64,000 nt of DNA from Rhizophagus irregularis (taxonomy: Eukaryota), in assembly GCF_026210795.1 (NCBI RefSeq), contig NC_089434.1, positions 434,001 to 498,000 on the forward strand, written 5' to 3'. This document shows, in pieces, positions 12,642-63,900 of this stretch. The stretch's first letter is position 1; every line of letters starts with the position of its first letter. Made by a program: the position numbers and the translations under genes. Under the pieces are notes generated by a model. The model worked only from the letters and a program-made list of their open reading frames with translations, had not been told where the DNA came from and searched no databases.

Positions 12642-13983
12642 ATATAATACTAGTAAGTGTTTTCGCAAATAAATCAAACAAATACTAGGGAACTTTATTT
12701 TTAATTGTTAAATATTTGTTGCTCATGAAAATTTATTGAGATAAAAGACGTTCTAAAATAGACAATGATATATGGATAACAGAAATTCTTTTTACAGTAT
12801 TGTGTTTTATATATTATTGAAAATATGTATAAAGTTTACATTACGTCAACCCTTTAAGTATTTTTTGTCATATACAGTATATGTACAAGGTTGCAAAATA
12901 ATTTAATTTTAAGGCAAAATTGTAATTTTTGGCCAAAAATTAAATGCAAAAATTATTGATGAAGAATAAAAAAAAAAAAATTATTTTGTATTACAGTATA
13001 TGTTGTGTCTGCTGTGATATTTGCTTTAAAGTAACTATCCTTGGCATAAGAATCCTAGATATATTTGATGCTAATCCTGGCCGAATTTTAATTCTGACTA
13101 GGATTGAGTTTTAACCGGTTAAGACTTTTTGGACCGGTTCCAACCTCTACTTTTGTTGTATTTTTTTGATTCGAGTAAATTTTGAATTGATGAATTGAAC
13201 TTTTATATAACCTACTTGTTTCAAATCACTTGTTTATCAAAAAAAAAAAAACTATACCTTTACGAAGTTGGTTGATCATCTACTGTATATAACTAAAAAA
13301 AATTTCCATATAAATAATTTGAATTGTGCAACATGATAACCCGTAAACCCGTGCCATAATATCGGGTCTGAAATTCTGTGATTTGGTCAGAATTATGCAA
13401 GTTCGGCCAACTTTACTATTCACAAATCCTGGCCAAGCTTAGCCAGCATTATGATGATTGCAAATCCTAAATCAGGCGAAAATTATCATCATTTTTATAA
13501 CCCTATTCTGCGTCCCTGTATAATATGAAAACCCGTGACATACTTGCGCCTGATCTATTCCTTATTTATTATTACATGAAAATTGTTACGTAATAATTTC
13601 TTTTCATTCAAACTTATTTTTTTTATTAAACCATATTACATCTTAAAAAAAAAATAATTATAATTCTACAGAAATTCTTCTCTTAGTTATGAACTTTTTT
13701 AGTAGAAATAATCAATTGAATGATTTCTTATAATCTTTCATGTTCATTATTCGCCACGTTATTTATTTAAAATACATCAATCATGTTTATATTGATTTTT
13801 TAAGTAAGACTACAAATTAATAGTCTATTGAATATATAATCAAGGTGTTATCTATTCATTAGTATGACAATCAAATTTGTTAAACTGAAAAAAAAAAGTA
13901 CGATAATATTTTCTTTTTTTGGTTATGAGGCGTAAAATACTACGCCTCAAGATCGCAAAATTTATGTGGGCACAACATGAAGT

Positions 13984-16299
13984 TTGATCAACAATTTGCA
14001 TTTCACTAATTTATCTCGGAGTACTCTTCGAAAGGGGTTAATTTGTGCAACAATTAATAGAACAATAACATTAACAGATACCAATATTTACAATGATATA
14101 CACAAACGATTTGAATTTCAAAAACAAACAACCCTTGATGATAAAATTCTTACAAATGATGAAAAAACTTATGCAATAAGATGGTTAACTAAAATTTATG
14201 ATCGAAATAAAATTATTCTTAATTCAGGAACAAAAGGAATTTGTGAAAATTGTGACCAAGAATGTTTAGCCACATTATATTGTGAGTATTGTGTCCGAAA
14301 TTATTTAAAAGAAAATTTTTTAAATTGGACATCTAAAAATGATGATATTGATGATATAATACAGAAATGTCAAATGGAATCACTTATGCCAAATATGGTA
14401 GTTGAATGGATCCCATATAGTAATTTAGAAAATATTAAATATTTAACAAAAGGTGGATTCTCAAAAATTTATACAGCAGATTGGATTAATGGAAGATATG
14501 ATGAATGGGATTTTGGCAAAAAACAATTAGAAAGAGATGAAACTTCTAAAATAATACTTAAAAGATTAGAAAATGTCGAAAGTGCAAATAAAAGTTGGTT
14601 TGAAGAGGTTTGTATAATTATATTCTAAATTTATTGTATAAAATTATGCAGTCTTTATATTAATATGAACTAATATTTTTACAAATTATTGCCTTTTAGG
14701 CTAAATCACATTTAACTATAAGTAACAAATGGGCAGATGTTGTTCGATGTTATGGTTTAACACAAGATCCATCAAATGGAAATTATATGCTTGTAATGGC
14801 AAGAATGGATATAGATTTAAGAAAATATTTACAACAAAATCATAATAAACTTACATGGAAAAAGAGAATTAATATTACTTATGAAATAATTACTGCACTT
14901 AGTTATATTCATGATGAGGAAGCAATTCATAGAGATTTACATTCTGGAAATATATTATATTCACAATTAGATGATTATTGGTGTATCAGTGATCTTGGAT
15001 TTTGTGGACCTGCTGATAAATCTTCAACAAGTATATATGGGAATCTTCCTTACATAGCACCCGAAGTTATTGTTGGAAGAGAATATACTTTTGCATCTGA
15101 TATTTATAGTATTGCAATTCTTATGTGGGAAATTTCATCTGGACAACCACCATTTATAAATTATGAACATGAAAATGATATTTTAATGAATATTATTAAC
15201 GGTATAAGACCAAAAATTGTGCCAGGAACTCCATTGGAATATAAAAATTTAATGAAAGAATGTTGGGATGCTGATCCATTAAAAAGACCTGATGCTGATA
15301 CACTTGCGGTAAGAATAAGAAGAATTAATTTAGATTATCAAAATATGTCAGATGAATTATTCAAACCAGAAATAAATAATTCAGAAATGAATATAGTAGA
15401 AGAAAATTATACGAGTAGCAGATTATTTACAAGTAAAATTCACAACTTTGGAAATCTACCTGAACCAAGAAATGCAATAGAAGGTATAAGTGTATAATAT
15501 TTTATTAATGAATGTATTTATTTTAAAATACATTATTAATATTATCTTTTTTTGAATTTATATTATAATAGAAGAACAAGAAGGTATTAACCGTATAAAT
15601 AATAATTTCTACCATTTTTTTGGTTACTATAATGATTTTAGTTCTTAAAATACTTTATTTTACTACTAATAGGGTTTCATAGTAAATTGTATGATTTTAA
15701 CATTCCTAACAATAGTAAGTAACATTATTACGGCGTTGAATTATTACATAGTGATATTTAATAATTGATATTTATTTTAGTTGATGATTTTAATAAATCA
15801 AATAAGCGAAATAGCAAATCATCAAAAGTAATTACTATGATTAGAGGTAATGTATTTTAATTATTGTCAAATCGAGATTAATTTTTATATTAATTCTATA
15901 TCTTAATTTTAGGTGATAGTGAAAAATTACCCGAAGAATTTATAAAGTTACAAATAAATTCAAATGGTAAGTTAAATTACTAACAAATAAAATCATCATT
16001 TTATCAAATTTATTTATTAAATGCGACTTTTATTTAAAATTTAGATGATGAAAAGGAAATAACTCAACGTGTCGACGGTAGGTGAAAATTTTACGTAATA
16101 ACAAACAATTTTTATACTATTTTAATTATGTTTATTTTCTTATAGATGATGACGAAGTATATAATAATCCAAATCTTCATTCTAAAGAACAAGATGAACT
16201 GGAAATTCCTGATGGTAAGTTCTTAAATAAATTAAATTTCTTCTTAAAGCAAATAATTAATTTATAATTTGTTATTTTTTATCTTTAGATGGATTTTGA
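13984..16299 (+). CDS. TKL-family kinase paralog lacking the conserved start ATG (possible young pseudogene)
   Basis: Same exon layout and motifs as 797-2894 (HRDLHSGN, DLG, YIAPE). CGG occupies the position of the ATG seen in paralogs, and the ORF track opens only on TTG at 13984. Last exon reads GAT GGA TTT TGA. Confidence 0.75.
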
Positions 16300-18176: not shown

Positions 18177-19306
18177 ATGAAAACTAATATTCAAGTAGTT
18201 TCAACTTGCCTGAACAACTTTCAATTAATAAATAAAGTTGATTTCATTTGCCCAAAGTGGAAATATTACGCTCTAAATTAAAAAAACAGAAAAGAGAGTT
18301 AATATCATCAAGAAAAATGCAATTTTCTCTAAGCACTACACCTACATTCATGAAAATTAATATTCAAATGGTTTCAACCTGCCTGAACAACTTTCAATTA
18401 ATAAATAAAGTTGATTTCTTTTGCCCAAAGTGGAAATATTACGCTCTAAGTTAAAAAATAGAAAAGAGAGTTAATATCATCAAGAAAAATGCAATTTTCT
18501 CTAAGCACTACATCTACATTCATGAAAATTAACATTGAAATGGTTTCAATCTACCTGAACAACTTTCAATTAATAAATAAAGTTGATTTCATTTGCCCAA
18601 AGTGGAAATATTACGCTATAAATTAAAAAACAGAAAAGAGAGTTAATATCATCAAGAAAAATGCAATTTTCTCTGAGCACTACACCTACATTCATGAAAA
18701 TTAATATTCAAGTGGTTTCAACCTGCCTGAACAACTTTCAATTAATAAATAAAGTTGATTTCATTTGTCTAAAGTGGAAATATTACGCTCTAAATTAAAA
18801 AACAGAAAAGAGAGTTAATATCATCAAGAAAAATGCAATTTTCTCTAAGCACCACACCTACATTCATGAAAATTAATATTCAAGTTATTCAAGTTGTTTT
18901 AACCTGCCTGAACAACTTTCAATTAATAAATAAAGTTGATTTCATTTGTCTAGAGTGGAAATATTACGCTCTAAATTAAAACACAAAAAAGAGAGTTAAT
19001 ATCATCAAGAAAAATGCAATTTTCTCTAAGCACTACACCTACATTCATGAAAATTAATGTTCAAATGGTTTCAACCTGCCTGAACAACTTTCAATTAATA
19101 AATAAAGTTGATTTCATTTGCCCAAAGTGGAAATATTACGCTCTAAATTAAAACACAAGAAAGAGAGTTAATATCATCAAGAAAAATGCAATTTTCTCTG
19201 AGCACTATACCTATATTCATGAAAATTAATATTCAAGTGGTTTCAACATGCCTGAACAACTTTTAATTAATAAATGAAGTTGATTTCATTTGGCCAAAGT
19301 GGAGAT
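18177..19306. repeat. 172-bp tandem repeat, about 6.5 copies
   Basis: Unit starts at 18177, 18350, 18522, 18694, 18866, 19047 and 19219. Copies are highly similar, and one carries a 9-bp internal duplication. Confidence 0.95.
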
Positions 19307-21357: not shown

Positions 21358-22303
21358 CATATCGGCATATCCAAGTCCCAAAGCCGAAAGAATCGATACC
21401 TACAAAAAGAAAAGAGAAAATTAAAAAAAAATAAAAAAAATAAAAATAAAAAACGTGTTTTATTCAAAACTTACTGATTCTTTGGGTTTTCCGTTCTTCG
21501 GAAGCCCACCCGAACCTATAAAAAAAAATACAAGAACGGTTAGTTAACCGTTCTTAATAATAAAAAAATAAAAAAAGTTAAGATTCGTACCATACCTTAC
21601 GAATCTTTGGGTTTTCCGTTCTTGGGAAGTCCACCCGAACCTATAAAAGAAAAAAGAAAGAACGGTTAGTAAACCGTTCATAATAATAAACAAAGAAAGA
21701 AAAAAAATAAAGATTCTTACGAATCTTTGGGTTTTTCCGTTCTTGGGAAGCCCACCCGAACCTATAAAAGAAAAGAAAGGAACGGTTAGTAAACCGTTCC
21801 AAAATATTAAAAAAAAAACAAAAACCAAAATTCGTACTCGTACTTACGAATCTTGGTTCTCCCGTTTGTCCGAAGTCCACCCGAACCTATAAAAGAAAGG
21901 AACGGTTATTAGTAACCGTTCATAATATTAAAAAAAAAATAAAAAAAACAAAACCAAGATTCGTATACTTACGAATCTTGGTTCTTTTCCGTTCTTCGGA
22001 ACCGAAAGTTCGCCCGAAACCTAAAAAATAGAAGTGAACGGTTATTGTAATCGGTTCATAATATTTTTTTTTAAAAAAAACAAAAAAAACAAAACCAAGA
22101 TTCGTATATACTTACGAATCTTGGTTCTTTTCCGTTCTTCGGAACCAGGAAGCCGCCCGAAACCTAAAAAAAGAAAAGAACGGTTATTAGTAACCGTTCA
22201 TTAATAATATTAAAAAAAAAGAAAAAAAATTAAACCAAGATTCGTACTTATCTTACGAATCTTGGTTTTCCGTTCTTCGGAACTTGGAAGCCCACCCGCT
22301 GAC
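21358..22303 (-). repeat. Tandem array of 8 antisense mini-exons (39-48 nt) with hairpin-embedded splice signals
   Basis: Exons at 22257-22303, 22116-22163, 21973-22020, 21848-21886, 21721-21761, 21601-21640, 21475-21515 and 21358-21399, each flanked by TAG| and |GTAAG on the - strand. Confidence 0.7.
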
Positions 22304-22334
22304 CTAAAAGAAGAAAGGAAAAAAAAATGAAAAA

Positions 22335-23345
22335 AAATTACGAAACGTTAATAAGCGTTTCGTTAAAAAATGTAATAAAAAAAATCGGAACGTTAGCCAA
22401 CGTTCCGATTAAAGAAAAAAATCAAAAAAAAAAGTTTCGAAACGTTAAAAAATGTTTCGTTAAAAATGAAATACAAAAAAAATCAGAACGTTAGCCAACG
22501 TTCCGATTAAGAAAAATAAAAAAAAAATGTATTTTCGAAACGTTAAAAAACGTTTCGTTAAAAAAAATGAAAAATAAAAAAATCGGAACGTTAGACACGT
22601 TCCGATTAAAGAAGTTAAAAAAAAAGAATAAATGAAAGCGCTTTTTCAACGTTTAGGCAAAAATTAAAAATAAAATAAAATGTCGGAACGCCAACGTTCC
22701 GATTAAAAAAATTAAAAAAATTGTTTCGAACGTTAAAAAGCGTTCCGATTAAAAAAAAAGAAAAAAATATTTTCGAAACGTTAAAAAGCGTTTCGATTAA
22801 AATGAAAAATCGGAACGTTAACCAAGCGTTCCGATTAAAAAAAAAATAAAACAAATATTTCGAAAGCGTTAAAAAGCGTTTCGAAAATAATTTTAATGAA
22901 AAATCGAACGTTAGCCAACGTTCCGATTAAAAAAATGAAAAAACAAATATTTCGGAAGCGTTAGACAACGCTTCCGATTAAAAAAAAAATAAAACAAATA
23001 TTTGAAAGCGTTAAAAAGCGTTTCAAAATATTTTTAATAAGAAAAATCGGAACGCTAGCGTTCGTTATTAAAGAATTTTTTAAAAACAATATTTCGGAAC
23101 GTTTTCAACGTTCCGATTAAAAATGAAGTAAAAATTAATCGAACGCGGCCAACGTTCGATTAAAAAAGAATTTAAAAAAATAATATTTCGGAACGTTTTT
23201 CAACGTTCCGATTAAAAATGAAATAAAAAATAATCGGAACGCTTAGCCAACGCTTCCGATTAAAAGAATTTTTAAAAAATATTTCAAACGTTAAAAAACG
23301 TTTCGTTAAAAAATGAATAAATAGTTTCGCAACGTTTCGTTGTGA
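22335..23345. repeat. Array of about 20 short palindromes separated by A-tracts
   Basis: Alternating AATCGGAACGTT-n-AACGTTCCGATT and CGAAACGTT-n-A(A/G)CGTTTCG hairpins at roughly 45-55-nt spacing. Confidence 0.85.
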
Positions 23346-36283: not shown

Positions 36284-39200
36284 TTAAATTTTATATGCAC
36301 TATATTGCATACCTAATGACTTCAAATCTTTAATTATATAATCATTCAAATCTTCACTTAGCTGTTCATTTACTTCTACACTAGCTTGTAAATCTTCGCT
36401 TTCAAGAATTTCATTCAAGTTTTCACTAGTATTTTCAACTGCTTTAATATCTAATAATCAAATAAATAAATTATTTTCACATAAATAATTTGCAAGATTA
36501 AATTTCATATGCACTATATTGCATACCTAATAACTTCAAATCATTAATTATATAATTATCCAAATTTTCACTTTCAAGAATTTCATTCAATTTTTTACTA
36601 GTGAAATCAAGTAAGCAACTTGTATGATATGCTTTAGGATGAGATTTAGTAGCTAGATCGCTATGCACAATTGGTGCATTTATAAATTCCATAATGTTGC
36701 TTTTTAATTCTTCATTAATTTTATCATCAGGACGGATAATCCAATTCTTAATAATACCTTTCACTTCTGAGGTAGATGGCCTTTTCAATGGATCTTCATT
36801 CCAACATTTTTTCATTAAATCTACATAGCATTGTGGAGTATTTTCAATAATTTTAGGGCGTTCACCTTTACAAATACTATAACTAAGTCGAAAATCATGT
36901 GCTTTATTATTAAATGGTGGTACCCCAGATGTAAATTCCCACATAATCATAGAAAAACTATATATATCACTAGCTGGAGTATAAGATTTGCCTCTTAAAA
37001 CTTCAGGAGCCATAAATGGCATAACACCATAAATATCATACTTTTTCAAAAACGATTTTACAGGTTGACATAATCCTAAATCACAAATATAAATTTTATC
37101 CTTATTCTTATCATTATGATTTAAAATATTACCATCATGAAAATCACAATGAATAAGATTATTTCCATGTATCCTACTAAGTCCAGAAATAATTTCGTAC
37201 AACATATATAATTTTTGATTCCATTTATTTTCGACTATTCTTGTTAGATTTTCTCTTAAATTACCTTTATTTGCATAGTACATTACTACCATATATTTTG
37301 AAGTATTTGTATCTTCTGTGAATCCATAAACATTTATAATATCATTTGAAGTTAAAACACTTATATGATATTCCCACTATAAATATAATAATTATTATTA
37401 AATATAAATAAATTTTAATTTAAATTAAAAATAGAAAATAATATACTATCATACTTCTTTTAAAAATTCATTTAAATTTTCATCTAAATTCTTAAGACAT
37501 TTAAGAATTACTTCTTCATCTCCATTATTCTTTAACCAAGTAGCTTTGTATATAGTACCAAATCCTCCTTTATTAAGATATTCAACATTTTTAAATTTGT
37601 TATAAGGAATCCATATTAATTCTTTTTCAAGAATAAAATCATCTATAATTGCATTTCCACTTTTCCCAAATCTATAAATTTAAAGTATTAAAATTATATT
37701 ATGGATTGTATTATAATTTACACTAAAATAAATTATTGCTTACTCTAAAATTTAAATAGGAATTTAATTTAATATAAGTCTTAAGTTTTTGGATAAATAC
37801 ATATACTAATAATCTATAATTTACAACTTACCAACTAAAGTAATAGATATTTTTTAAATGAAAGAATTAAATTAACAAATAGATATTATATAAAATATAT
37901 AATAATAGAGATACTTACAAGCTAGATCATAAATATTTTTAAATAAAGAAATTAGATAGTTTAAATTATATGTAAATATTATAACAATAAGTAACAATAG
38001 AATTAAATAAATAACTTACCATCTATAAAATAATTTTTTATATAAAGAAATTAGATAGTTTAAATTATATGTAAATATTATAACAACAAGTAATAATAGA
38101 ATTAAATAACTTACAATCTTTAAAATAATTTTTTATATAAAGAAATTAAATAGTTTAAATTATATGTAAATATTATAACAATAAGTAATAATAGAATTAA
38201 ATAAATAACTTACTCACTATATTATTTAATAATTTTTTAAATAAAGAAAAATTAGATAGTTTAAATTATATGTAAATATTATAATAATAAGTAATAATAG
38301 AATTAAATAAATAAATTATGACTTACCAACTACAAAATAAAGAAATTAGATAGCATAAATTATATGTAAATATTATAACAATAAGTAATAATAGAATTAA
38401 ATAAATAACTTACACCCTATATTATTTAATAATTTTTTAAATAAAGAAATTATATAGTTTAAATTATATGTAAATATTGCAACAATAAGTAATGATAGAA
38501 TTAAATAAATAACTTACGATCTATTAAATAAATAAAGAAATTAGATAGTTTAAATTATATGTAAATATTATAACAATAAGTAATAATAATAGAATTAAAT
38601 AAATAACTTACGATCTATTAAATAAATAAAGAAATTAGATAGTTTAAATTATATGTAAATATTATAATATAAGTAATAATAATAGAATTAAATAAATAAC
38701 TTACCAACTATTAAATAAAAATTAGATAGTTTAAATTATATGTAAATATTATAACAACAGGTAATAATAGAATTAAATAAATAACTTACTCCCTATATTA
38801 TTTAATAATTTTTTAAATAAAGAAATTTGTTAGTTTAAATTATATAACAATAAGTAATAATAGAATAAGTAATAATAGAATTAAATAAATAACTTACAAT
38901 CTATTAAATAAATAAAAAAATTAGATAATTTAAATTATATGTAAATATTATAACAATAAGTAATAATAGAATTAAATAAATACTAACTTACCATCTATTA
39001 AATAAATAAAGAAATTAGATAATTTAAATTATATGTAAATATTATAATAATAAGTAATAATAGAATTAAATAAATAACTTACTCCCTACATTATTTAATA
39101 ATTTTTTAAATAAAGAAATTAGATAGTTTAAATTATATGTAAATATTATAACAATAAGTAATAATAGAATTAAATAAATAACTTACGATCTATTAAATAA

Positions 39201-40867
39201 ATAAAGAAATTAGATAGTTTAAATTATATGTAAATATTATAACAATAAGTAATAATAGAATTAAATAAATAACTTACTCACTATATTATTTAATAATTTT
39301 TTAAATAAAGAAAAAATTAGATAGTTTAAATTATATGTAAATATTATAATAATAAGTAATAATAGAATTAAATAAATAAATTATGACTTACCAACTACAA
39401 AATAAAGAAATTAGATAGCATAAATTATATGTAAATATTATAACAATAAGTAATAATAGAATTAAATAAATAACTTACACCCTATATTATTTAATAATTT
39501 TTTAAATAAAGAAATTAGATAGTTTAAATTATATGTAAATATCATAAAAATAAGTAATAATAGAATTAAATAAATAACTTACGATCTATTAAATAAATAA
39601 AGAAATTAGATAGTTTAAATTATATGTAAATATTATAACAATAAGTAATAATAATAGAATTAAATAAATAACTTACGATCTATTAAATAAATAAAGAAAT
39701 TAGATAGTTTAAATTATATGTAAATATTATAATATAAGTAATAATAGAATTAAATAAATAACTTACCAACTATTAAATAAATAAAGAAATTAGATAGTTT
39801 AAATTATATGTAAATATTATAACAATAAGTAATAATAGAATTAAATAAATAACTTACTCCCTATATTATTTGATAATTTTTTAAATAAAGAAATTAGATA
39901 GTTTAAATTATATAAATAATATAAATATAGATATCATATAACTTACACCCTGTAGTATTATTAATTATTAATTAGTTAGATATAAAGATAATATAAAAGT
40001 ATTTACTGTAAATTATATATATTACTTACAATCTAGTTGTTTAAATTAAGAATATAATTAGTTGAATTATGTAAAATATTAAACAAATAAATATAATATT
40101 TATATTGTAACTTACCATCTGTAATACAATTAATTATTAAATAGTTATTTAAACAAAGAATTTAGTTATTTGAATGTTGTATAAAAATAAATAAAGTAAA
40201 GGACTAAAGATTTAAATAACTAATAACTTACTAACTACAGATTATTAATTATTGAATAAATTATTTAGTTATATGGAATACAATAAAAATAATAATGAGT
40301 AATTCATTATATTAACTTACGAGCTAAATATTTAATCATATAATTTTTATATAAAATAGTTAGTCTAAATTATATTTGTAGTATTTGAATTGTTATAAAT
40401 AAAAACTTAATATTTCAGCTACCTTTAGATTCCTTGGTGTCACTTCCTTCAAATTCCTCAATACTACTACTTTCAAATTCTTCAGTGCCACTTCCCTCAA
40501 ATTCTCCAATGTCACTTTCTTCAAACTCTTCTATATTACTGGAAACTAGTTTTGTTATATTGCAAATTTGATTTTAATTATATTTGATTATTTACAATGA
40601 AATTTTTTTAATAAATAAAAAAACTTAATATTTCAACTTTGTTTTGTACATAATATTTACCTTCAGGTTCTTTTGTATCACCCAAAACTAGTTTATTATA
40701 TTGCAAGTTTGATTTAAAAATTTTGAATAATTCTAATTTATATTATTATTCATGTTATAAACTTTACCTTTACCAATACATTGGTCCATTACTATATCAA
40801 AATTCTCAATTGGAAAAGATAAATATCTTTTTTCTTTTTTTTTTATTATTAAATGCCTTTTAAACAT
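36284..40867 (-). CDS. TKL-type kinase (second subfamily) with an N-terminal micro-exon array
   Basis: Exons: 40768-40867 (or from the ATG at 40789), 40661-40687, 40423-40545, 27 x 3 nt, 1 nt at 37744, 37455-37671, 36527-37376 and 36313-36450 (3' end uncertain). The joined frame is open: MDQCIGKVLGDTKEPEVSSNIEEF...KESK-ALNDWWIDHRFVNRNDWIDHRFVNYAFE-FGKSGN...KGGFGTIYK...HCDFHDGN...DLG...FMAPE. Confidence 0.8.
37744..40323 (-). repeat. Tandem intron/3-nt-exon array (83-116-bp period)
   Basis: The + strand shows CTTAC-NNN-CT(A/G/T) 27 times, which is AG|NNN|GTAAG on the - strand, with a CTAAT branch-site-like motif in most introns. Confidence 0.9.
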
Positions 40868-41106
40868 CTTTATTAGTATGAGTAAATATAGTAATAATAT
40901 TTATGCAAAATACATTATGTGTAATCATAAGTACAAGCATTGCATCATTGCATATATGACAAACAAACCGGAATGTAGATCAATTATTACAAAATCGCAG
41001 TAACTGGTTAATCATTTCAGCTTAGGTAATTATTAAGTAATAAAATTATTATCATTCATTTTTATATAAAATTAGTTAGCTTACTTATTTTTATTGTATT
41101 GTTTTT

Positions 41107-43439: not shown

Positions 43440-44355
43440 TTATTGAAAATGATTTATTTTTTTCAAATAAGATTTCGCCATCATAGGCGTTATCTGTGAA
43501 AATGCTGCTATAATAGCAAATCTAGGGTCGGGATAAGTTTCCATAAAATCCTTATTTCTTTTAATCCAGCTTTTTACTGTAGAAAATGCTAATTTTATCA
43601 GATTGAAATCAGGAGAGTACGGAGGAAGAAATAATATTCTACAACCAAGACTTTTTATTACATTGATCAATTCTTCATCATGGTGTATTTTAGCGTTATC
43701 CATCACCAATACACTGTTCTTTCCAGGGTAAGGTTTCATAAAAGGTAACTATAAAATTAAAATAATTAGCAATTAGCAATACTGAAATTAAATCATAAAA
43801 AAAACTATAAATATAACGTGATCACAAACGTGATCGTAAAGTTGCGCGAACGCGAAAAATAAAAAAATACAATTTGAGATAAAACGATAAAACAAATGAA
43901 CAAAATCTCTCTTTAGAACAGCTACATCTCATAATATCACATGCAGCGAATCCATCTAATGTAAGCGTAGGTAAAATAGTATACCTAACGCATCTCAAAA
44001 AAACTACTTTTTGACATGCTCTTTGATTTTCAAATGAATATCCATAAGTTCGTAATAAAGATCTTTCATTTAGCAGTTTCGTCCAAAAAAATCAATTGCT
44101 CTGCTTGATATTCTGTACTAATAGTAAAAATATAATCAGTTTTTAGCAATTCACTCCTTTTTTTTGCAGCTTTTCCAACTAGATTTTAAAAATAATAATA
44201 TATACTTAACCTTCTTTCTTGTTATTCCATAATATTTTAAAGATCTCTATAAAGTAGGTATAGAAACCTATTTTTCCAGTTTTATTAATCATCTCTCCAA
44301 TAATTTCATCCAAATAATAATTAGGACATTCTTTAATAATTTCTTGTAAAATCTA
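43440..44355 (-). pseudogene. Tc1/IS630-family DDE transposase remnant
   Basis: VLVMDNAKIHH and LFLPPYSPDFNLI motifs. Upstream broken fragments include FLDETAK and YLDEII..SIPTL. TIRs were not located. Confidence 0.8.
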
Positions 44356-46631: not shown

Positions 46632-47391
46632 CTGCTAACCTGATTTTGAAGCTTCGGGCAAAGCCACAGATTTACGGGCGAAACTTGAAATTTTTAAAAT
46701 ATATTATTTAGGTATTCAAGAATCAATGGTTAAAATAAACCAGCAGAATTTTAGATAAACCAAAAGTTATCATTAAATGAATATTATTAAAATATATATT
46801 AGGAAAAAATTTTGGCAAAATTTTATGAACTGTTTAAAGAATTTTTTTTGTTTTATTTATTTAAACAACAAATTTTGATCATTAAAAAATTATATTGTTT
46901 ATTTTTTTATAAATAGTCTTTAAAATTTTGTGAAGAAATACTCATAAAAACACATTTTATTAGAATTTAAAAAGTTATTATTACTAGTAAAAGTTACCCA
47001 ATAATGATGCGATCTTGATAAAATTTAATATGCAGTAAATCTAAATGAATATTAAGCTGTCTGTAAAATTTGAGTACATATTATTATGTAGAATTTTCAA
47101 CCAAAGCCAATCAATTTAATTATAGCGAAGAGATAAAAATTGAATAAATGATCGACAAATGATCGTCAAAATTGTGATAAAATAGGGATGTCCGCTATGC
47201 TAATGCAGGTACTACAAGCACCATATTTGGAGAAAACATTTTGTGTAAGTTGCACTACATTATAAGACTGTAAATCATTGCTAATAATTTTGGTCACAAA
47301 ACTTTATTTCTCTTTTTTCTCATCGTAATTTTTAAAACTTTCAAATTTATAAAAATTCTTTTCCTTTCAAAGCTCTTTTTTAAATAATCCA

Positions 47392-49899
47392 ATGTCTATA
47401 ATTCGAAAAGAACTTGCTCATGCAGCAATATCTAGGTCACTTGCATTAATAGATTATAATGTTCACAAGAATATTCACAAAATATATGAATTTCAACAAC
47501 AAACACTTCTTGCTGATAATTCTTTTACAAAAGATGAAAAAAATTATGCAATAAATTGGATAACTAGAGACTATGATCGAAATAAAATTAATAACAATTC
47601 AGGAACAAGAAGAATTTGTGAAAATTGTAATCAAAAATGTTTAGCTACATTATATTGTGAATTTTGTGTTCAAAATTATTTAAAAACAAATTTTTCAAAT
47701 TGGACATCTGGAAATGTTAACATTGATAATTTAATCCAGAAATGTCAATCAGAAACACTCATGCCAAGTATGATAGTTGAATGGATTCCATATAATAATT
47801 TACAGAATGTCAGGTATTTAACAAAAGGTGGTTTTTCTGAAATTTATACAGCAGATTGGGTTGATGGAAAATATGAAGAATGGGATTCTAAAAAACAGCA
47901 ATTAAAAAGAGTTGGAAGACATAATGTAATACTTAAAAAATTAGAAAATGTTGAAAGTGCAAATCAAAGTTGGTTTGAAGAGGTTTGTAACCTACTGTAA
48001 ATCTAAGAAAATTGATTAACCAATTCAGCTTTATATTGATAATAGATTTTTACATTTTTTTAGGCTAAATCACATTTAACTATAAGTAATAAAAGGTCAG
48101 ATATTGTTCAATGTTTTGGTTTAACACAAAACATATCAAATGGAAATTATATGCTTGTAATGTATAAAATGGATATAAGTTTAAAAGAATTTTTACAACA
48201 GAATCACAATAAACTTACATGGAGACAAAAATTAAATATATCTTTTGAAATAGTTAGGGCACTTTATTTTATTCATAAAGAGAATGCAATTCATAGAGAT
48301 TTGCATTCAGGAAATATATTGTATTCACAAATCAATAGTAAGTGGTATATTGGTGATCTTGGATTTTGTGGACCTGCTGATAAATCATCAAAAAGCGTAT
48401 ATGGAATTCTTCCTTACATAGCGCCAGAAGTTATTAATGGAAGAGAATATACTTTTAAATCTGATATTTATAGTATTGCAATGCTTATGTGGGAAATTTC
48501 ATCTGGACAACCACCATTTATTAATCATGGACATGATTGTAATCTTGCAATAAATGTTATTAATGGTATTAGACCAAAAATTGTGTCAGGAACTCCTACA
48601 GAATATAAAAATTTAATGGAACAATGTTGGGACGCTGATCCATCAAAAAGACCAGATACTAATACACTTATGATAAAAATAAGAGAGATGAATTTTTATT
48701 ATCAAAGTATGACGGATGAATCAGAAATACACAATAATTTAGAATTAGATGAAACAAATAGTAATACAAATAGCAGATTATTTACAAGTAAAATTCATCA
48801 ATTTGAGAATCTACCCGAACCAAGAAATGCGACAGAAGGTATTATATTTAATATATGTTGCTTTTATTATTTAAATACATAAATAATAACAAAAAATTCT
48901 CATTTTTTATATTAAAAATGAATAGAGGAGCTAGATGGTAATGTAAATTTGTCAATCTAATAATTAAAATCTTTTAATTTCTCAGATTATTTATATTCTT
49001 ATTCATTTCGACTTTTTTTACTAAAATATTTTATTTTAAATAGTATTCCATAGTAAACCATATGATTATAGTATTCCTACTAATAGTAAGTATTTTTTTT
49101 CAAATTGTAGGATTGTTATATATAGTATATATTTTTAATTATTAATTTTACCTTTTCTTTAGTTGATAACTCAAGCAATCAGAATAATAGTAGAACATCA
49201 AAAATAAATAGCTTTTTTAAAGGTTGGTGAATTTATCCATATACAGTCTTTACAGAAACTTCAAGATCGTAGCGATGGCTTAATGCGCAGTAACTGCGTT
49301 ATAAATACATAGTGACCACATTTATGTAATCGTAAAGAAATTACATATATGCAGTTACTGCGCATTAAGCCATCGCTACGATCTTTGAAGTTTCTGTAAA
49401 GGTATTTAATTGATTTATCTTTTTTTTTTATAAAAAAATAATTGGATAAATAAATAATGAATCATATTTTAAATTTTAGCCAATAGTAAAAAATTATCCA
49501 AAATGTTTAAAAAGCTACAAGTAAAAGATGGTATGTAAATAAGTTAATATTATTTATTAATGCAAATATTCATTAAATGTAATTTATTTCAATTTAATAT
49601 AAACAAGAAACAGTGCAACAAACAAAAGGACCAAATGTTAATTTTAATGGTAAGACTGACAAATATACACATTTTAATGACCATTTTTGTATTTTTTTCT
49701 AATTATTCTCATTTTGTTACTAAAGATGATGAAGATGAAGTATACAATAACCCAAATTTTCATTCTAAAGAACAAGATGAATTTGAAATTCCTAATGGTA
49801 AAAAATTCACTATTTTAAAATGTAAAAATTATTTACTTTAATTTACTAATTTTTATTATTGAAAATATTTTTTTTTTTTTGATATTAGATACAAAATGA
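47392..49899 (+). CDS. TKL-family protein kinase paralog, apparently intact
   Basis: ATG start, CxxC..CxxC, KGGFSEIY, HRDLHSGN, DLG and YIAPE. Same intron positions as 797-2894. The short C-terminal exons end GAT ACA AAA TGA. Confidence 0.88.
49244..49402. mobile_element. Foldback MITE in a kinase intron
   Basis: About 50-bp inverted arms CTTTACAGAAACTTCAAGATCGTAGCGATGGCTTAATGCGCAGTAACTGC, with TA at the outer flanks. Confidence 0.7.
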
Positions 49900-54915: not shown

Positions 54916-57241
54916 TTGTCTGCTATTCGAAGAGAAGCAATTCGTGCAGCACTTAATAAATCACTTGCAATAGTAGATTATAATGTATGTGATGACATGC
55001 ACAAACAACATATATTAACAAACACTACTTGCTGATAAATCTCTTACAGAAGATGAAAAAACTGAAGCAATAAAAGAATTGTATGAAATTTATGATCGAG
55101 ATAAAATTATTTCTAATTCAGGAATAAGTAGAATTTGTGAAAATTGTAATAAAGAATGTTTAGCTACATTATATTGTGAATTTTGTATTAGAGATTATTT
55201 AAAAGCAAATTTTTCAAATTGGACATCTGGAAATAATGACATTGATAATTTAATACAAAAATGTCAGTTAGAAACGATTGAACCAGATGGAGTAATTGAA
55301 TGGATTCCATATAATGATTTACAAAATATCAAATATCTAACAAAAGGTAGCTTTTCTGAAATTTATACAGCGGTTTGGATTGATGGAGGATATGAAGAAT
55401 GGAATTCTAAGAAACAACAATTAGTAAGATTTGGAATACAAAGAGTTATACTCAAAAGATTAGAAAATGTTGAAAATGCAAATCAAAGATGGTTTGAAGA
55501 GGTGCGTAATCTAAAAAAATACTTGTATTTAAATTTTTCAAGTATTACTTATAAAATATTATTATTTTATAGGCTAAATCACATTTTAATTTAAGCAAAT
55601 TATCACAAATTGTCCAATGTTATGGTTTAACACAAGACCCATTAAATGGAAATTACATGCTTGTAATAGATACAGCAAAACTATAATCAACTTACTTGGG
55701 AAGAAAGAATTCTGATTATCCAAAATATAATTAAAGGACTATTTAGTATTCATTCACGAAATGTAATTCTAGAGATTTGCATTCTGGAAATATATTGTAT
55801 TCAAAACGAAATCAACGATTTTATATTAGTGATCTTGGATTTTGTGGACCTGCTGATAAACCATTAGAAAGTATATATGGAAATCTTCCTTATATAGCAC
55901 CTGAGGTTATTACTGGAAAGAATACTACAAAAAAATCAGATATTTATAGTATTGCAATGCTTATGTGGGAATTTCATCTGGACAACCTCCTTTTGGTGAT
56001 TATGGAAATGATTATTATCTTGCAAAGAATATTTTCAATGGTATGAGACCAAGAATAGTATCGGGAACTCCTCTAGAATATGAAAGATTAATAAAACAAT
56101 GTTGGGATGCTGATCCATCAAAAAGACCACATACTTTAACAGTTTTTGATAAAATAAGTGAAATTATTTTAAATAATCTATATGAGACAACTCAATCAAG
56201 AACAAATTTTAGTTCAGAAACAAATAAAGCAAATATAAATTATACAAGCAGCAGATTATTTACGAGTAAAATTTATCAATTTGGCGGGTTTCCCGAGCCG
56301 AGAAATGCAACTGAAGGTAAATGCTTTAATGATATTTTTCAGTTATTAATTATTTGTATTTGTATGTTATTGTACGGGCGTGCTTAATAATGGTATGGAA
56401 GCGCCACATCAGATCATTATTAAGCGCCCGTACAATAATAATTATTATGATTTAAATTAATAAAATATATATTTTGTTTAAATAATAATAGAAGAACAAG
56501 AAGGTAAGAGTGAATAATATTTTTATTTAAAAAAATTATTTTACTGCAAATGATTTATATTAATATTGGCATCTTAATTTTTAATTTTGTAGCATTTTAC
56601 AGTAAATCATATGATAATTTTTATATTCCTGATGATGGTAAATATTTACTAATTTATTTTGTCGCAAATATAAATTAGCTGAATAATTAATTGATTTTAT
56701 TTTTTATTTAGTTGATGATTTTAATAAATCAAGTAATCAGAAAAATAATGGTAGTGTCTTAAAAATTGCTTTATTTGTATAATTATTTATAGCTAAATAA
56801 AATTACAACTTTAGATGACAGTGAAGGTTTATCCAAAGATTTTAATAAGTTACAAATAAATTCAAAAGATGGTAAGTAGTAATATAGTGATCAATTTTAC
56901 TAATTTAACCATGTATTTTATTATTAGTTATATTATTTTATATTTAGAAGTTGTTCAAAATGTTTATAAAATGGACGTGACGCAACAGCAAGTAAATAAA
57001 CATTATACCGATGGTATGTGATAAATTATTATCATAAATTTTTATATTGTTTTAAATTCTGATTTATTTTATTTTATTTTTTTATAACAGATGACGATGT
57101 AACAATCCAAATCTTCGTTCAGAAGAACAAGATGGAATTGAAATTCCTGATGGTAAGTTTACTTTTTTATAATTTAAATTTTATTTGATTTTATTTACTA
57201 AATTTATATATATATACTATATATTTTTTGTAGAAATTTAA
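54916..57241 (+). pseudogene. TKL kinase pseudogene
   Basis: Start codon ATG changed to TTG, frameshifts or deletions near 55015, 55670, 55770 and 55970. The exon structure otherwise matches the paralogs. Confidence 0.85.
56367..56438. repeat. Short intronic inverted repeat (MITE remnant?)
   Basis: TTATTGTACGGGCG(TG)CTTAATAATG / CATTATTAAGCGCCCGTACAATAA. Confidence 0.6.
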
Positions 57242-57973: not shown

Positions 57974-60900
57974 TTAATTATTTAATATTATATTTAACAT
58001 TTGAGATTCTTCTTCTCTTTCTTCATCATCTATTGCATTTTCACAAAATTCTAACCTTTTTTCTAAAATTAAACCTCTATTTAAATTAATAAATTTTTCA
58101 CAATGATTTTTTAATTTTAAAGCTTTACAATTATCTGCCCATTCTGACATTTCAATTACATTATTAATATTAACACAACCATCTTTCATAATTGTAATTT
58201 CTACTATATCTTTAAGTGGTTTACATCCACTTATATCTGTAATTTTTAATAAATTGACAAGAAAATCTAAATAATAAGAATCATAATTTTCTTCTTCAGT
58301 TCGTTTTCTCAAAGTAGAACTTGCTTCTTCAAAAGATTCTCCATATAACCATCGAAGGAATACTCGGAAAGAATTTGATTGGATATAATCTAATCTAACT
58401 TCAACCTGTCTATTATCTTCTGATTCGGCTGTATGACCACAAAACATTTTCTCAAAGTATTCTGATGCAGCTATTTGAAAAAAAAAATGGTAAATACAGT
58501 GTTAATAAACAAATTATTTAATTATAAAACTTACGAACGATATTTAACTTACCAGAAAGTACATAACGACTAGCACCAATTCTTGTTCCCTCTTCACCAA
58601 CAATAAAAATAACATCATGATGTTTCGTATCAGGATGTCTTATAAGTCTTTTTAATAAATTATTATGTAATAAATCTTTTTGATCATGATAATCGTGAAT
58701 AAGATCATATTCATTAATATTTATTTCTTCCAACTCATGAGCTCCAGCAAGTTTCAATAAATCTTTATAAGGCATTATAAATTCATCAACTTTTTTTAAT
58801 CCTTTACTAATATCTTCTTGTACTCCAAATACAAGATTATCTCCTGCTACCCAATTATCATTATCAAATAAATCTTCTCCATTTAAGAATAATCTATTTT
58901 TTGTAATAAATGATATTATTATATTCTTATGAATCATTTCTTGTGAAAATTCATTCATTATTTCATAAATTTTTTCAATTATCTTCTTAATAACTTTATA
59001 ATTTTCTGAAGATTTCCAAGTTAAAGATCCTAATTTAATTTTTTCAACAACTAAAAACCAATGTTTAATAACATCAATTAAAGTTGGTTTTCCAATATTA
59101 GGAAAATATCTATAAAGTATATTATTTGGTTCAACACTTTTTTCAAATAAAGGTCTTTGAGACCAACATACTTCTTTATATTGTTGAGAACAAAGTACTG
59201 AAAAACATTCATAACCTAAAGTTACTTTAGCTTCTTCATTAAATAATCGATTTTGAAAATATTTTTCTGATGGAACGAATTTTATATTCATAATTTGATT
59301 CAATTGATCAATTGTTAAACCTAAACTAGTAATATGTCCATAGAAATAATCTGTAACATATTTTGCTCGATGTTTAACTATATTTTCTGGATAACTTTCG
59401 GATCTTCTAAATTGTGATTCAATTTCTTTTGCACATTCAATAAATGTATTAGCATTCACATGACGTTTAAGTCCGATTCTTTCTAAAGCTCCCATCAATC
59501 TTGGATTTTGTAATTCTGGAGCTAAAAATTTATCACTACCTTCAAAAACATTGAAAAATAAAGGAACGGTATTATCATATAAAGTATTTGCCTTCACCAA
59601 AGATTCATGTGTTACATTTGGAATTACTTGACATTCTTTAAGAAATTGTTCAATTTCTCCATTTTCTAAAGATAAAACCTTTTTTAAGAAATTTATATAT
59701 TCTTCAGATGGTTTTGTATATATATGTTGTGGTAAGAAATGATCTCTAACATATTCTAATTCATCAATTGAATTTGCGCCTAAGTTGAAGAGTGCATTAT
59801 AATCATTTTCGTTATCACATTTATAAAAATGTACATTTTCTTGTAAGGGAAAGAATGGAAGATTATGTGGAAGAAGGATTCCAGATTTCGCATCAATAAA
59901 TTTGTCATCACTTGAACATATTGGCCATATAGGTAATGAACGTAATGAACGAAGAATATTAGCAAATCTATCTTGTCTTCGACCATGTCCTATTTATAAA
60001 GTAGATATTAATTATCGTGAAATTAAATTTGATAATGTCAATAATCGAAAAATAATTAATAATGATTATACTTACTTATTAAATCATCAATATTATCTTT
60101 AATATAATTTCTAAATTTTTCATAATCTTTTGGTAAAAGATTACGTTCTTTAAATAATTGATCCATGGACATATTTGATGAAACACACATTCTTTCTAAG
60201 GCATTAATAATATTAACCGAATTAAATGGTAATACGCATTGTCTAATATTATGATTAGCTGAAGTTGGAAATTCCTTATTTGTGAATCGTAATTTAAGTT
60301 TCACTAATACAGGATAAAAATTTCTTTCATAATCACGTATACTAATAAGTGGATTTGTAATATCAAGTTGAACGAGTTTTTCATAAGGTTGAATCATTGG
60401 TAAAAGAGGAAATTTTGAAAGTCTAATAAAATTGATATTATCATCAACTTCAAGTTTTGACCAAATTTCTTCTAACCATTTACTATTTGGTATTGAAGTA
60501 CTATTAGGTTCATAATCTAATTCTTCAATATCATGAAATTCTAATGATAAAAGATCTAAAATTGCAGCAGAATCAAATCGTCTGATATTTGTTTGTACGG
60601 AAAATTTCTTACTTCTAAAAATTTCTAATAATGCCCCCGGTAGATCAATATGAACAAATCTTGAAGGTCCAAATTTTGGGAATAAATCTATATACTTTTG
60701 TTTCCCAATATAATAGACATTTCCAAATTTTCCAATCGAACCATCATTCAATGGAACTAATGGTAATCTATTAAGGATTTCATAAGATTCATCTATACTT
60801 TTAAGAATAAATTCAAGTAATAAGAATAATAAAGAACGAATAATTTCTTTTTTGGCAGTTTTATCATTTTGATAGAACATATGTATATATTCCTCATTTT

Positions 60901-63900
60901 TTCGTATTACGTCACAAATAGTTCTTCCACCAATCGTCGTATAAGGAAAACTACTTTGTTTAGAAATCTCCTTAAGTTGGATCAGTTTTTCCTCATCAAA
61001 TTTTAAAGATGAAACTCCCCAATATGCCAAAAGATCTGCAATCATAGGATCACTTTCTTCATGTACATTACTTTCTTTTAAGGATACAAATTTACCGCCA
61101 TTAGCTTCAGTCCAGAAAAATTTTGAATCATTTGTACCTAATTTTTTGATAACATGTAAACCATATTTTTTATATAATCCTATAATTGAATTTTTTGGAA
61201 TCGGCCAAAGATTATTTAAAGTATGTGGTTTGAAATTTATTTTTGTATCATCAGTACGAGAAGCCTTCATTTTTTCGAATCGAATGTTTTCAAGTTTAAC
61301 GATCTCTTCAAGTAATATAATATGTAATTCAGGTAAAAGATCATACATAATATATTGATTCCATTTTGCATCTTCATCATTAGCCGTCAAAAAATCAGTA
61401 GCAGATTGTATAATATTATTTCTCGCGCTAGTTAAGGAAAAATTTCCATTTAAATGAACGCTTAAATTGGTGATCATAGATAGAGATAAATAATTATAAA
61501 TTCCGCCAACGAATTCATCAGGAGGATTTGGAAACTATATGAATCATAAAAATTTTTCGATATATTTAATATTGGTGAAAAAGATATATTAATATTGGTG
61601 GAACATATATAATATTGATGAAATTATAAAATCGAAAAAAAATAAACATTACCGATTCATCTTTTAAATTATCCAACGTTTTATTAGATCGAGCGAGTAA
61701 AGCTGCGACTCCGCCTCTTGGCTTTTCAAAAAAAAAAAAAATTTAAGGTTTGTTTTTTAGTAAAAAGTTCTTAAATTCATTCAAGATCACTAATAAACTA
61801 TAATTAATTACCTTGAGTCGTTTATTCTTCATAAATTTTTTAAAATCATGTCTAGTTTTATCATGTTCTCCCGTACATATTAACCATATTTCCGAAGATT
61901 TCTTTCCCTTTATATCCATTTCAAAATCTAATTGATATACTTGTGATTTATGAACCACGCTTTTACGAATATTACGATAATTATCATTCATATTTATTTT
62001 AACTTCCCAAATCAATCGAGAATCACTATTTCCATTTGTTATATGACGTAAACTACACGATTCTACATTCCTTAAAAAGAGCATCTCGTTATTACTCTGA
62101 AAATTATCAAATATTTCCTTAATTTTAAGGACCTTTTTAGAGATTTCACTTTGTTCCGCTAATTTAGAAGTTCTTAATGGAAGTCTAAACAACGTTCCCT
62201 TAAATTCTTTTGTAAAATCACAACCTAACGCCTCATAAGGATAACATTGATCTGGAAAATGCTTCTTAAATTCCAGGTCAATAAAATTGAATCTATTACC
62301 TCTAAATCTTCTAGGAGGGTATCCTTGTGCTGGAAGATATTTTGCATTAGGGTCTAAAAATGCGATATATTTTCCACTTACAAAGCTAGGTAAATCTGTT
62401 AAATGAAAAGCACAATTAAATCCTATTCCAAATCTACCAATTTTTGTATCATCATCAGATTTTCCTCCAACTCCAAGTTTAATCAAAGATTGAAAATCTT
62501 TTGAAGTAAATTCAGCATCATTATAAATCCATATTGCGGGACCTTGCCAATCTTCCATCTCTTCTGATAAAAAAGATTTTTGTAGTTTATTATGACAAAA
62601 TGGTTTTCTTTCGTCTACTATTATGGAAAAGTGTGTGGCTTTAGCATCATCTGCGTTCTATACATAGAAGAGAAATCATTACGTTAATTCTTTAGATGTA
62701 ATTATTTTATATTAACTTCGTTCGTGTACTTACTTGAAGAAATTCTTTAAATATGGAGCTCGTCGGATAATCCTAAAAAAAAAAAAATTTAATAAATTTG
62801 TGAATTAATGTTAATGCATATATGATGATTAATGAAATTATTAAAGTTACCTCGATAATATGTTTAATTCTAGTAGTTAATAATTCATTTTGTTCATATG
62901 CATCCCAATTAATATCTCCACCGGTATTACTAATGCCAGTAATTTTTCCGGCTAAAGTTTGTAATTCCAATTCTTTAGCGATATCCAAAGTTACGAAACG
63001 ATGAGCAAGTTTATAATCTTTTTTCTCATCATCATCAAGTCTATCCTCCATATCATCAAATTGAATTTCATGTAAATTAACAAGAGTATCTTCAGTACTT
63101 GGTATTAATAATCCATCTAATTTTTCTCTTTCAATTCCTTCTCTTTTATTTTCCTTTTGTATTTTTGCGATATGTTCAAGAATTCTAATAATATTTGTGA
63201 TTTCAATCGCGGATAAGATTTTATCTTTATCCACTTTAACCATATTCTGAATAACTAAAATCAAATCCTTGATTCCAATCTCATCACGAACTCCCATATA
63301 TCTAAATAAAGATTTCATTCTATTATATTCCGTTGGAAGTTCAACAATTATAGAATTATTAACATGAAATTTATTTGGAAGATTAAAAACTACTTTTTCA
63401 GCTGGATAAAATATTTCTCCACATAAAATCCATGGATGAGTTTTTAAAGCTTTTTTTATAATCTCAAATTCTACATTAGATTTATAATCCCTTGAACGTG
63501 AATCAAAAATTTCATTAATATATTTATAAATAGCCATACAAATATCTTCCAAATTTTTTGGTGATTGTTTACTAAGTACTAATTTATAACAAAATATTAA
63601 TTGTTCTAAAACTTTTTCAACTTTAGGATAATTATCCCATCTTAAAAATTTTAAAAATTTCTTATTAACTTTTGTTTTAATTATAGGAGAAATTAAACCA
63701 ATTAAATCTTTATCTTTTTGACAATAACAATTATCAGATCTTGAAAATTTTATTTTTTCATTCATATCAATAGTTGGAATCCATTCTTTTTCTAAAATCG
63801 TTTTTGATAATAAATTATTATTAATATTACGAATAAATCTATTATTTTGTGAATCATTAATATTAAATGTATCCCATTTATCATCAATATATTTAAAAAG

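Follow-up and report, generated by a model that had tools for sequence, protein, structure and literature searches.

The window analysed here, a 64-kb stretch of AT-rich fungal DNA, contains several kinase genes. One of them, a minus-strand tyrosine-kinase-like gene from a Rhizophagus irregularis-type fungus, carries an array of 27 three-base exons ahead of its kinase domain (Table 1). The encoded kinase matched PF07714 (E 1.3e-33) with intact catalytic motifs (Gly-rich loop, catalytic Lys, HCDFH loop, DLG and APE) and also matched PF00069; kinase domains were the only domains found by Pfam. Its best relative was POG74106.1 of Rhizophagus irregularis DAOM 197198, with 99% identity over 98% of the query, and 762 relatives were found at E<=1e-60. 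The nearest kinases of solved structure were EGFR, CTR1, TAK1, MLK/ZAK and RIPK1. At the 3' end of the gene, the NCBI model splices kinase exon 2 onward to a short acidic tail rather than reading through to 36498. The N-terminus is charged and, judged by eye, lacks a hydrophobic stretch. Some paralogs begin with MG and have a Cys at position 4, which we take to recall a lipid-anchor motif; the host gene has an Asp at position 2. Three other kinases in the window have a Cys-rich module before a WTSGN motif, and in the array subfamily this position is occupied by an acidic repeat and a triplet-coded peptide.

Table 1 Features of the array-bearing kinase gene, in order of transcription (positions in the window).
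Feature	Position	Strand	Evidence or remark
Coding exon 1	40768..40789	-	ATG at 40789; transcribed exon extends at least to 40818; matches the POG74106.1 N-terminus
Exon 2, 27 nt, phase 1-1	40661..40687	-	RNA joints at both sides
Exon 3, 123 nt, acidic E/S/G-rich repeat, phase-1 end	40423..40545	-	RNA depth 18-85 per direction; loose ends at 40423
Three-base exon array (27 units, introns of 80-113 nt); 28 residues if all are included	37832..40323	-	Splice-site pattern, frame, family RNA
Units 1-5, older non-repetitive introns	39947..40323	-	Triplets joined in family RNA, 14/15 letters the same
Homogeneous core, intron+triplet cassettes in tandem	37939..39924	-	Period 94, 20.5 copies, 81% matches
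Units 6-12, first copy of 7-unit block	39278..39860	-	
Units 17-23, second copy of 7-unit block	38214..38792	-	7/7 triplets identical to units 6-12
Predicted 1-nt exon (TAG A GTAAGC)	37744..37744	-	Sets the frame for acceptor 37671
Kinase exon 1 (FGKSGN motif, Gly-rich loop, catalytic Lys)	37455..37671	-	
Kinase exon 2 (PF07714/PF00069)	36527..37376	-	Read-through frame stop at 36498

The array itself proved to be real, with an intact splice-site pattern in every unit. All 27 units consist of [ACT]AG, three nucleotides and GTAAGT, followed by the single-nucleotide unit, and 22 of the 27 are preceded by a CTRAY branch-like motif. On the minus strand of the window, AG-NNN-GTAAGT occurs 28 times, 27 of them within the array; the other spacings between AG and GTAAGT (0-9 nt except 3) were found at 0-4 sites each. 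Only 10 distinct triplets and five distinct two-base starts are used. The duplicated 7-unit block shows no change at any of its 21 exon bases between copies. The resulting peptide makes up 28 of about 450 residues, 12 of them W, D, H or R, and directly precedes the FGKSGN motif and the kinase domain.

Exon 3, like the two exons before it, ends in phase 1, and the chain that includes every triplet is open into the kinase. When the triplets were chained in phase 0 or phase 2, two and four stops appeared, respectively. An alternative in-frame acceptor at 37642, used by the NCBI model P0001, would bypass the predicted 1-nt exon, and the model of POG74106.1 joins exon 3 in frame directly to this acceptor and treats the array as an intron. 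NCBI models of six paralogs (P0015, P0016, P0026, P0027, P0047 and P0085) contain differing triplet-like runs at the position of the array, which were likely read mostly in the wrong phase. A search with the N-terminal 75 residues matched four proteins, none of which models the correct triplet chain.

Transcription was assessed in three raw poly(A) runs (X21-X23, at most two samples from one study) and one contig set (X2), which were compared with positions 39930-40900 of the window at 90% likeness and cover the first 10 units at best. The runs carry the same species label as the window; a run search for the sequence itself listed no run of RNA type. Reads at least 99% identical to the window numbered only 18, 31 and 38 of 248, 293 and 302, and most reads derived from paralogs. 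Exons 1-3 were joined in RNA at the predicted sites, and the joint 40687-40768 (CT..AC) was present in all three raw runs and in the contig set. Reads that left the DNA at 40423, where exon 3 ends, numbered 39, 46 and 57 in X21-X23, and two X2 contigs did the same; beyond this point the consensus opened with the first five joined triplets, matching the window at 14 of 15 letters. Further evidence came from joint 40033-40437 in X22 (4 reads, 3 starts), in which exon 3 was followed by three triplets and a fourth with its next intron kept, so that in this half-spliced molecule a 3-nt exon was seen in place. The reads at this joint and at 39949-40241 were partly spliced, with introns removed in no fixed order. 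These results show exon 3 joined to the first triplets in close paralogs and indicate the same for the host gene.

The joined triplets bear on the reading implied by POG74106.1, in which the array is a satellite within a single long intron and contains no exons. The in-frame junction of exon 3 with acceptor 37642 in that model agrees with such a reading, but RNA that runs from exon 3 into joined triplets contradicts it, as do splice sites intact at 27/27 units, branch-like motifs at 22/27, and the avoidance of stops between neighbouring triplets in related arrays described below. For the family this reading is largely refuted, and we regard it as very improbable for the gene. The same family RNA joins and stop avoidance bear out the original prediction that the triplets are phase-1 codon exons.

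Whether all triplets are included in each transcript was assessed from the letters beyond the joints. In X2, 8 of the 30 letters of the two-contig consensus deviated from the all-included chain, in every case towards the letter earlier in the alphabet, a pattern consistent with a tie-break between the host chain and a paralog if such a tie rule is assumed. Contig record 2 of X2 (371 nt) had no differences from exons 1-3 and continued for 169 letters. Under the assumed tie rule the unskipped chain fitted, all 10 single-skip forms of units 1-10 failed, and 1,389 of 5.2 million possible starts fitted, none of them with one to three skips; the chance of a fit was 0.028 with the first five units given and units 6-10 random. 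If the deeper contig wins instead, the RNA of the host gene carries another array. Paralog-specific loose ends agreed over 30 letters at 0.95 and 0.94 (18 and 22 reads; about 9 triplets) and at 0.97 (16 reads; about 4 triplets). Such agreement suggests that a single isoform dominates in each paralog across the first units, although 0.95 still allows minority skipped forms. The mixed loose ends at 40423 agreed at 0.71-0.82, a range in which a mixture of paralogs and skipping look alike.

These data also bear on combinatorial splicing, in which triplets would be skipped in many combinations and one gene would yield a mixture of kinases that differ in their N-terminal peptide. Any skip in the host gene keeps the frame and makes no stop, and tens of 3-nt exons are reported to be spliced alternatively in NACHT-ankyrin genes of another mycorrhizal fungus, Tuber. 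Moreover, the consensus at 40423 loses coherence about 5-7 triplets in and is not the same in X21 and X23, two runs of one sample; introns are removed in no fixed order at the two joints above; and skipping would be easiest in the near-identical introns of the core, of which the RNA, reaching the first 10 units at best, covers little. Against this, no skipped triplet junction was seen in the RNA reads, which cover the first units and are mostly from paralogs; the paralog-specific ends agree at 0.94-0.97; the X2 consensus, under the assumed rule, matches the chain with every unit in place and none of the single-skip forms of units 1-10; and stops created by skipping are not depleted in related arrays, where they are present in 5 of 7 long ones. 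We consider combinatorial splicing rather unlikely.

Separately, in X21, loose ends at 40774/40775 within exon 1 (40768-40789) included 42 and 24 reads that pass directly into triplet-like chains without exons 2-3. These exon 1-to-triplet transcripts are from further genes with such arrays.

Related arrays were sought in metagenomes with a pattern of three donors and two 3-nt exons, which matched at least 109 loci. Among the matches listed, 73 were short-period satellites and 36 passed the filter, and 19 AT-rich loci with the intron type of the window were picked by hand for the stop test. The other 17 filtered loci (short repeats, bacterial DNA, and GC-rich or non-repetitive arrays) were left out. 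End units were mis-parsed in L030 and L022 (last), in L068 and L004 (first) and perhaps in L099 (first), and the related loci may stem from few assemblies. A phase-1 kinase exon abuts the array in L002, L010, L030 and L091, and in L022 the array lies before another kinase. The kinase of L010 is 53-60% identical to proteins of Rhizophagus and, across 59% of its length, 65% identical to a Funneliformis geosporum protein, and the related arrays therefore likely come from other Glomeraceae, to judge from these identities. Metagenome proteins matched by a search with the L010 kinase begin inside the kinase. Units also die: two in L026 have lost their acceptors, and L080 has decayed donors.

In the 19 related arrays, none of the 159 pairs of neighbouring triplets made a stop, compared with 5.9 in within-chain shuffles (P 0.0004). 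Stops between non-neighbours occurred in 39 of 796 pairs, compared with 27 expected within chains and 49 in the pooled shuffle (P 0.17), and five of the seven arrays with at least 10 units gave stops on skipping. Since neighbours are stop-free and skips are not, selection guards the all-included frame. Skipping would still be compatible with such stops, because decay of the stop-bearing forms would be tolerated.

The host array was originally described as having a skip-safe alphabet, and within this gene the description is accurate: its triplets start only with CT, TT, AT, GG or TG, so no ordered subset gives a stop, and there are no stop-making ordered pairs. The further proposal that the alphabet was shaped for stop-free skipping did not withstand comparison with the family, in which 42 of 182 triplets in the 19 arrays start with AA, AG or GA and skip stops are not depleted. 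At the family frequencies, 10 independent draws would lack AA, AG and GA starts altogether with a probability of 0.07, and five draws with a probability of 0.27. The stop-free alphabet here is most simply explained by chance and descent from few cassettes.

No triplet starting with TA was found among the 182 of the family and the 27 of the window, though xTA codons would be expected to be common in AT-rich DNA. Elsewhere in the scan, L047 (1-3670, minus strand), an AT-rich eukaryote-like contig, holds some 36 exons of very small size, most of them 3 nt, with non-repetitive introns, and is an old, non-tandem form of the layout. GC-rich intron-like units of about 90 nt with variable triplets occur in L037 (1-1300) and L049 (900-1300); their sequence is unrelated to the fungal arrays.

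Divergence of the exon bases was compared with that of the introns between which they lie. Across the columns of the core, mean intron diversity was 0.095, a mean inflated by misaligned 3' ends, and diversity at the three exon positions was 0.67, 0.46 and 0.78. Sister units were then compared along spanning-tree edges, which are not independent of one another, using near-identical flanks of 30 nt on each side. In the window (16 edges), there were 6, 0 and 9 differences at the three exon positions, compared with a rate of 0.016 in the flanks. In the family (49 edges from 17 of the 19 loci, loose threshold) the exon positions differed 12, 19 and 20 times against 0.065, and at the strict threshold (18 edges) 1, 3 and 3 times against 0.032, a weak excess. 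The anticipated excess of exon-site over intron-site diversity thus emerged from the core columns and from sister units, in the window and in related loci, and it holds although the edges are non-independent. Conservation of the wobble position was considered as a sign of positive selection and rejected: the window edges reduce to about five independent changes, so that its unchanged wobble position is not significant, and the pattern is absent in the family (Fisher P 0.82).

This excess weighs on neutral growth of the array, in which cassettes multiply, each adding a tolerated residue to a disordered linker, while recombination homogenises the introns, the triplets drift and selection acts against stops only. 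The array does adjoin a low-complexity acidic stretch, the peptides of related arrays have no common motif, and the rate of change in the family is similar at all three exon positions. However, under drift with conversion a 3-nt island should move together with its flanks, and the exon bases differ from 4-6 times (family, loose threshold) to more than 20 times (window, positions 1 and 3) as much as the 30-nt flanks; the layout also recurs before kinases that are only about 55% identical. We consider neutral growth improbable.

Taken together, the evidence makes it fairly probable that the 27 three-base exons are joined consecutively in a single main mRNA, placing a peptide of 28 residues before the kinase domain, and that this peptide is diversified at the DNA level. 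Such diversity would arise from tandem duplication and loss of intron+triplet cassettes together with favoured change of the three exon bases. This proposal builds on the unit anatomy, the open phase-1 frame and the duplication of the 7-unit block, and on the related arrays, in which selection keeps the all-included frame, not skips, free of stops. Unequal crossing-over or gene conversion within the near-identical introns would add, remove and homogenise units, each cassette thereby acting as a one-residue in-frame indel, and new triplets would be kept. Because it sits where three kinases of the window have a Cys-rich module, the peptide is likely a variable binding or specificity tag, which may differ among the many kinase paralogs. 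The original prediction of a hypervariable segment made by splicing, by unit gain and loss, or by both thus stands in part: tandem gain of units is evident in the 7-unit block, but the reads fit one dominant isoform over the first units rather than skipping. A bolder version, which we think unlikely, is that Glomeraceae kinases have an N-terminal peptide programmable residue by residue, in which cassettes copied, lost and mutated under diversifying selection combine with skipping in the core to give a somatically variable recognition repertoire hidden from gene models.

Several known systems resemble this layout. In Dscam, one exon is picked per cluster in a mutually exclusive manner, giving many isoforms per gene. 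The idea of many isoforms per gene is shared, but here neighbouring triplets are included together in reads. The micro-exon genes (MEGs) of Schistosoma have runs of very short symmetric exons of mixed sizes that can be skipped in frame, and encode secreted proteins made almost wholly of micro-exons. The exons here are likewise symmetric and a multiple of three in length (all 27 are 3 nt, phase 1-1); unlike those of MEGs they are uniform, the protein here has no hydrophobic signal stretch (by eye), and a full kinase domain follows. Codon-sized mini-exons in nank (NACHT-ankyrin) NLR genes of Tuber melanosporum were reportedly described by Iotti et al. in 2012. Reviews attribute diversity of these NACHT-ankyrin genes to alternative splicing of tens of 3-bp exons (PMC10197012, PMC4986451, PMC13449251, PMC3689799), a case among fungi in which exons of 3 nt serve diversification by splicing. 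As described in those texts, the two systems share tens of consecutive 3-nt exons, an expanded signalling-type family, a mycorrhizal host and a proposed role as a source of diversity. They differ in that the Tuber genes encode NLRs in an ascomycete whereas the array here lies in a tyrosine-kinase-like gene of a glomeromycete, and in that extensive alternative splicing is reported for Tuber whereas here no skip was seen and ends agreed at 0.94-0.97, over the first units. The introns here are tandem copies of one cassette, for which we know of no counterpart in Tuber. Of these three systems, the Tuber mini-exons come closest to the array.

In brown algae, NB-ARC-TPR and ROCO receptors, candidate immune receptors, have single-exon repeats reshuffled by recombination and splicing (PMC13449251); the exons there encode whole TPR or LRR repeats, whereas those here encode single residues. 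SP7-like effectors were considered as an analogue and set aside, being described with repeats but no micro-exons (PMC11333574). No micro-exon report for Rhizophagus or Glomeromycotina was found in the literature searched, in so far as its text was accessible; subscription papers and genome-paper supplements may mention one.

With 27 three-base exons, each of which ends one splice site and starts the next, the gene is an extreme case for the spliceosome. Public models of the kinase subfamily leave the array out, begin downstream of it or string its triplets together in a likely wrong phase, and the variable N-terminus of many kinases is therefore missing from the proteome. The layout also makes one-residue in-frame indels ordinary tandem-repeat events, a distinct route of peptide evolution. 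The host is the most studied arbuscular mycorrhizal fungus, and plentiful RNA data make diversification by splicing or at the DNA level directly testable.

Elsewhere in the window, a second exon-intron tandem array (21358-22303, minus strand) has eight exon-like units of 39-48 nt, and its introns hold a palindromic hairpin. The lengths of these units are not all multiples of 3, and the gene may thus be decaying or the borders may be off. Just upstream of it lies an array of short palindromes (GGAACGTT-type hairpins; 22314-23321) with periods of about 48 and 95, and a 172-bp tandem repeat of 6.5 copies with 92% matches is found at 18177-19303. Four kinase genes of the Cys-rich N-terminal type lie on the plus strand (788-2313, 13981-15497, 47353-48882 and 55019-56387), the last of which looks frame-broken. 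The minus strand carries a large sacsin-domain gene with a BTB domain at its end (57974-62657) and a DDE_3 transposase remnant (43440-44091).
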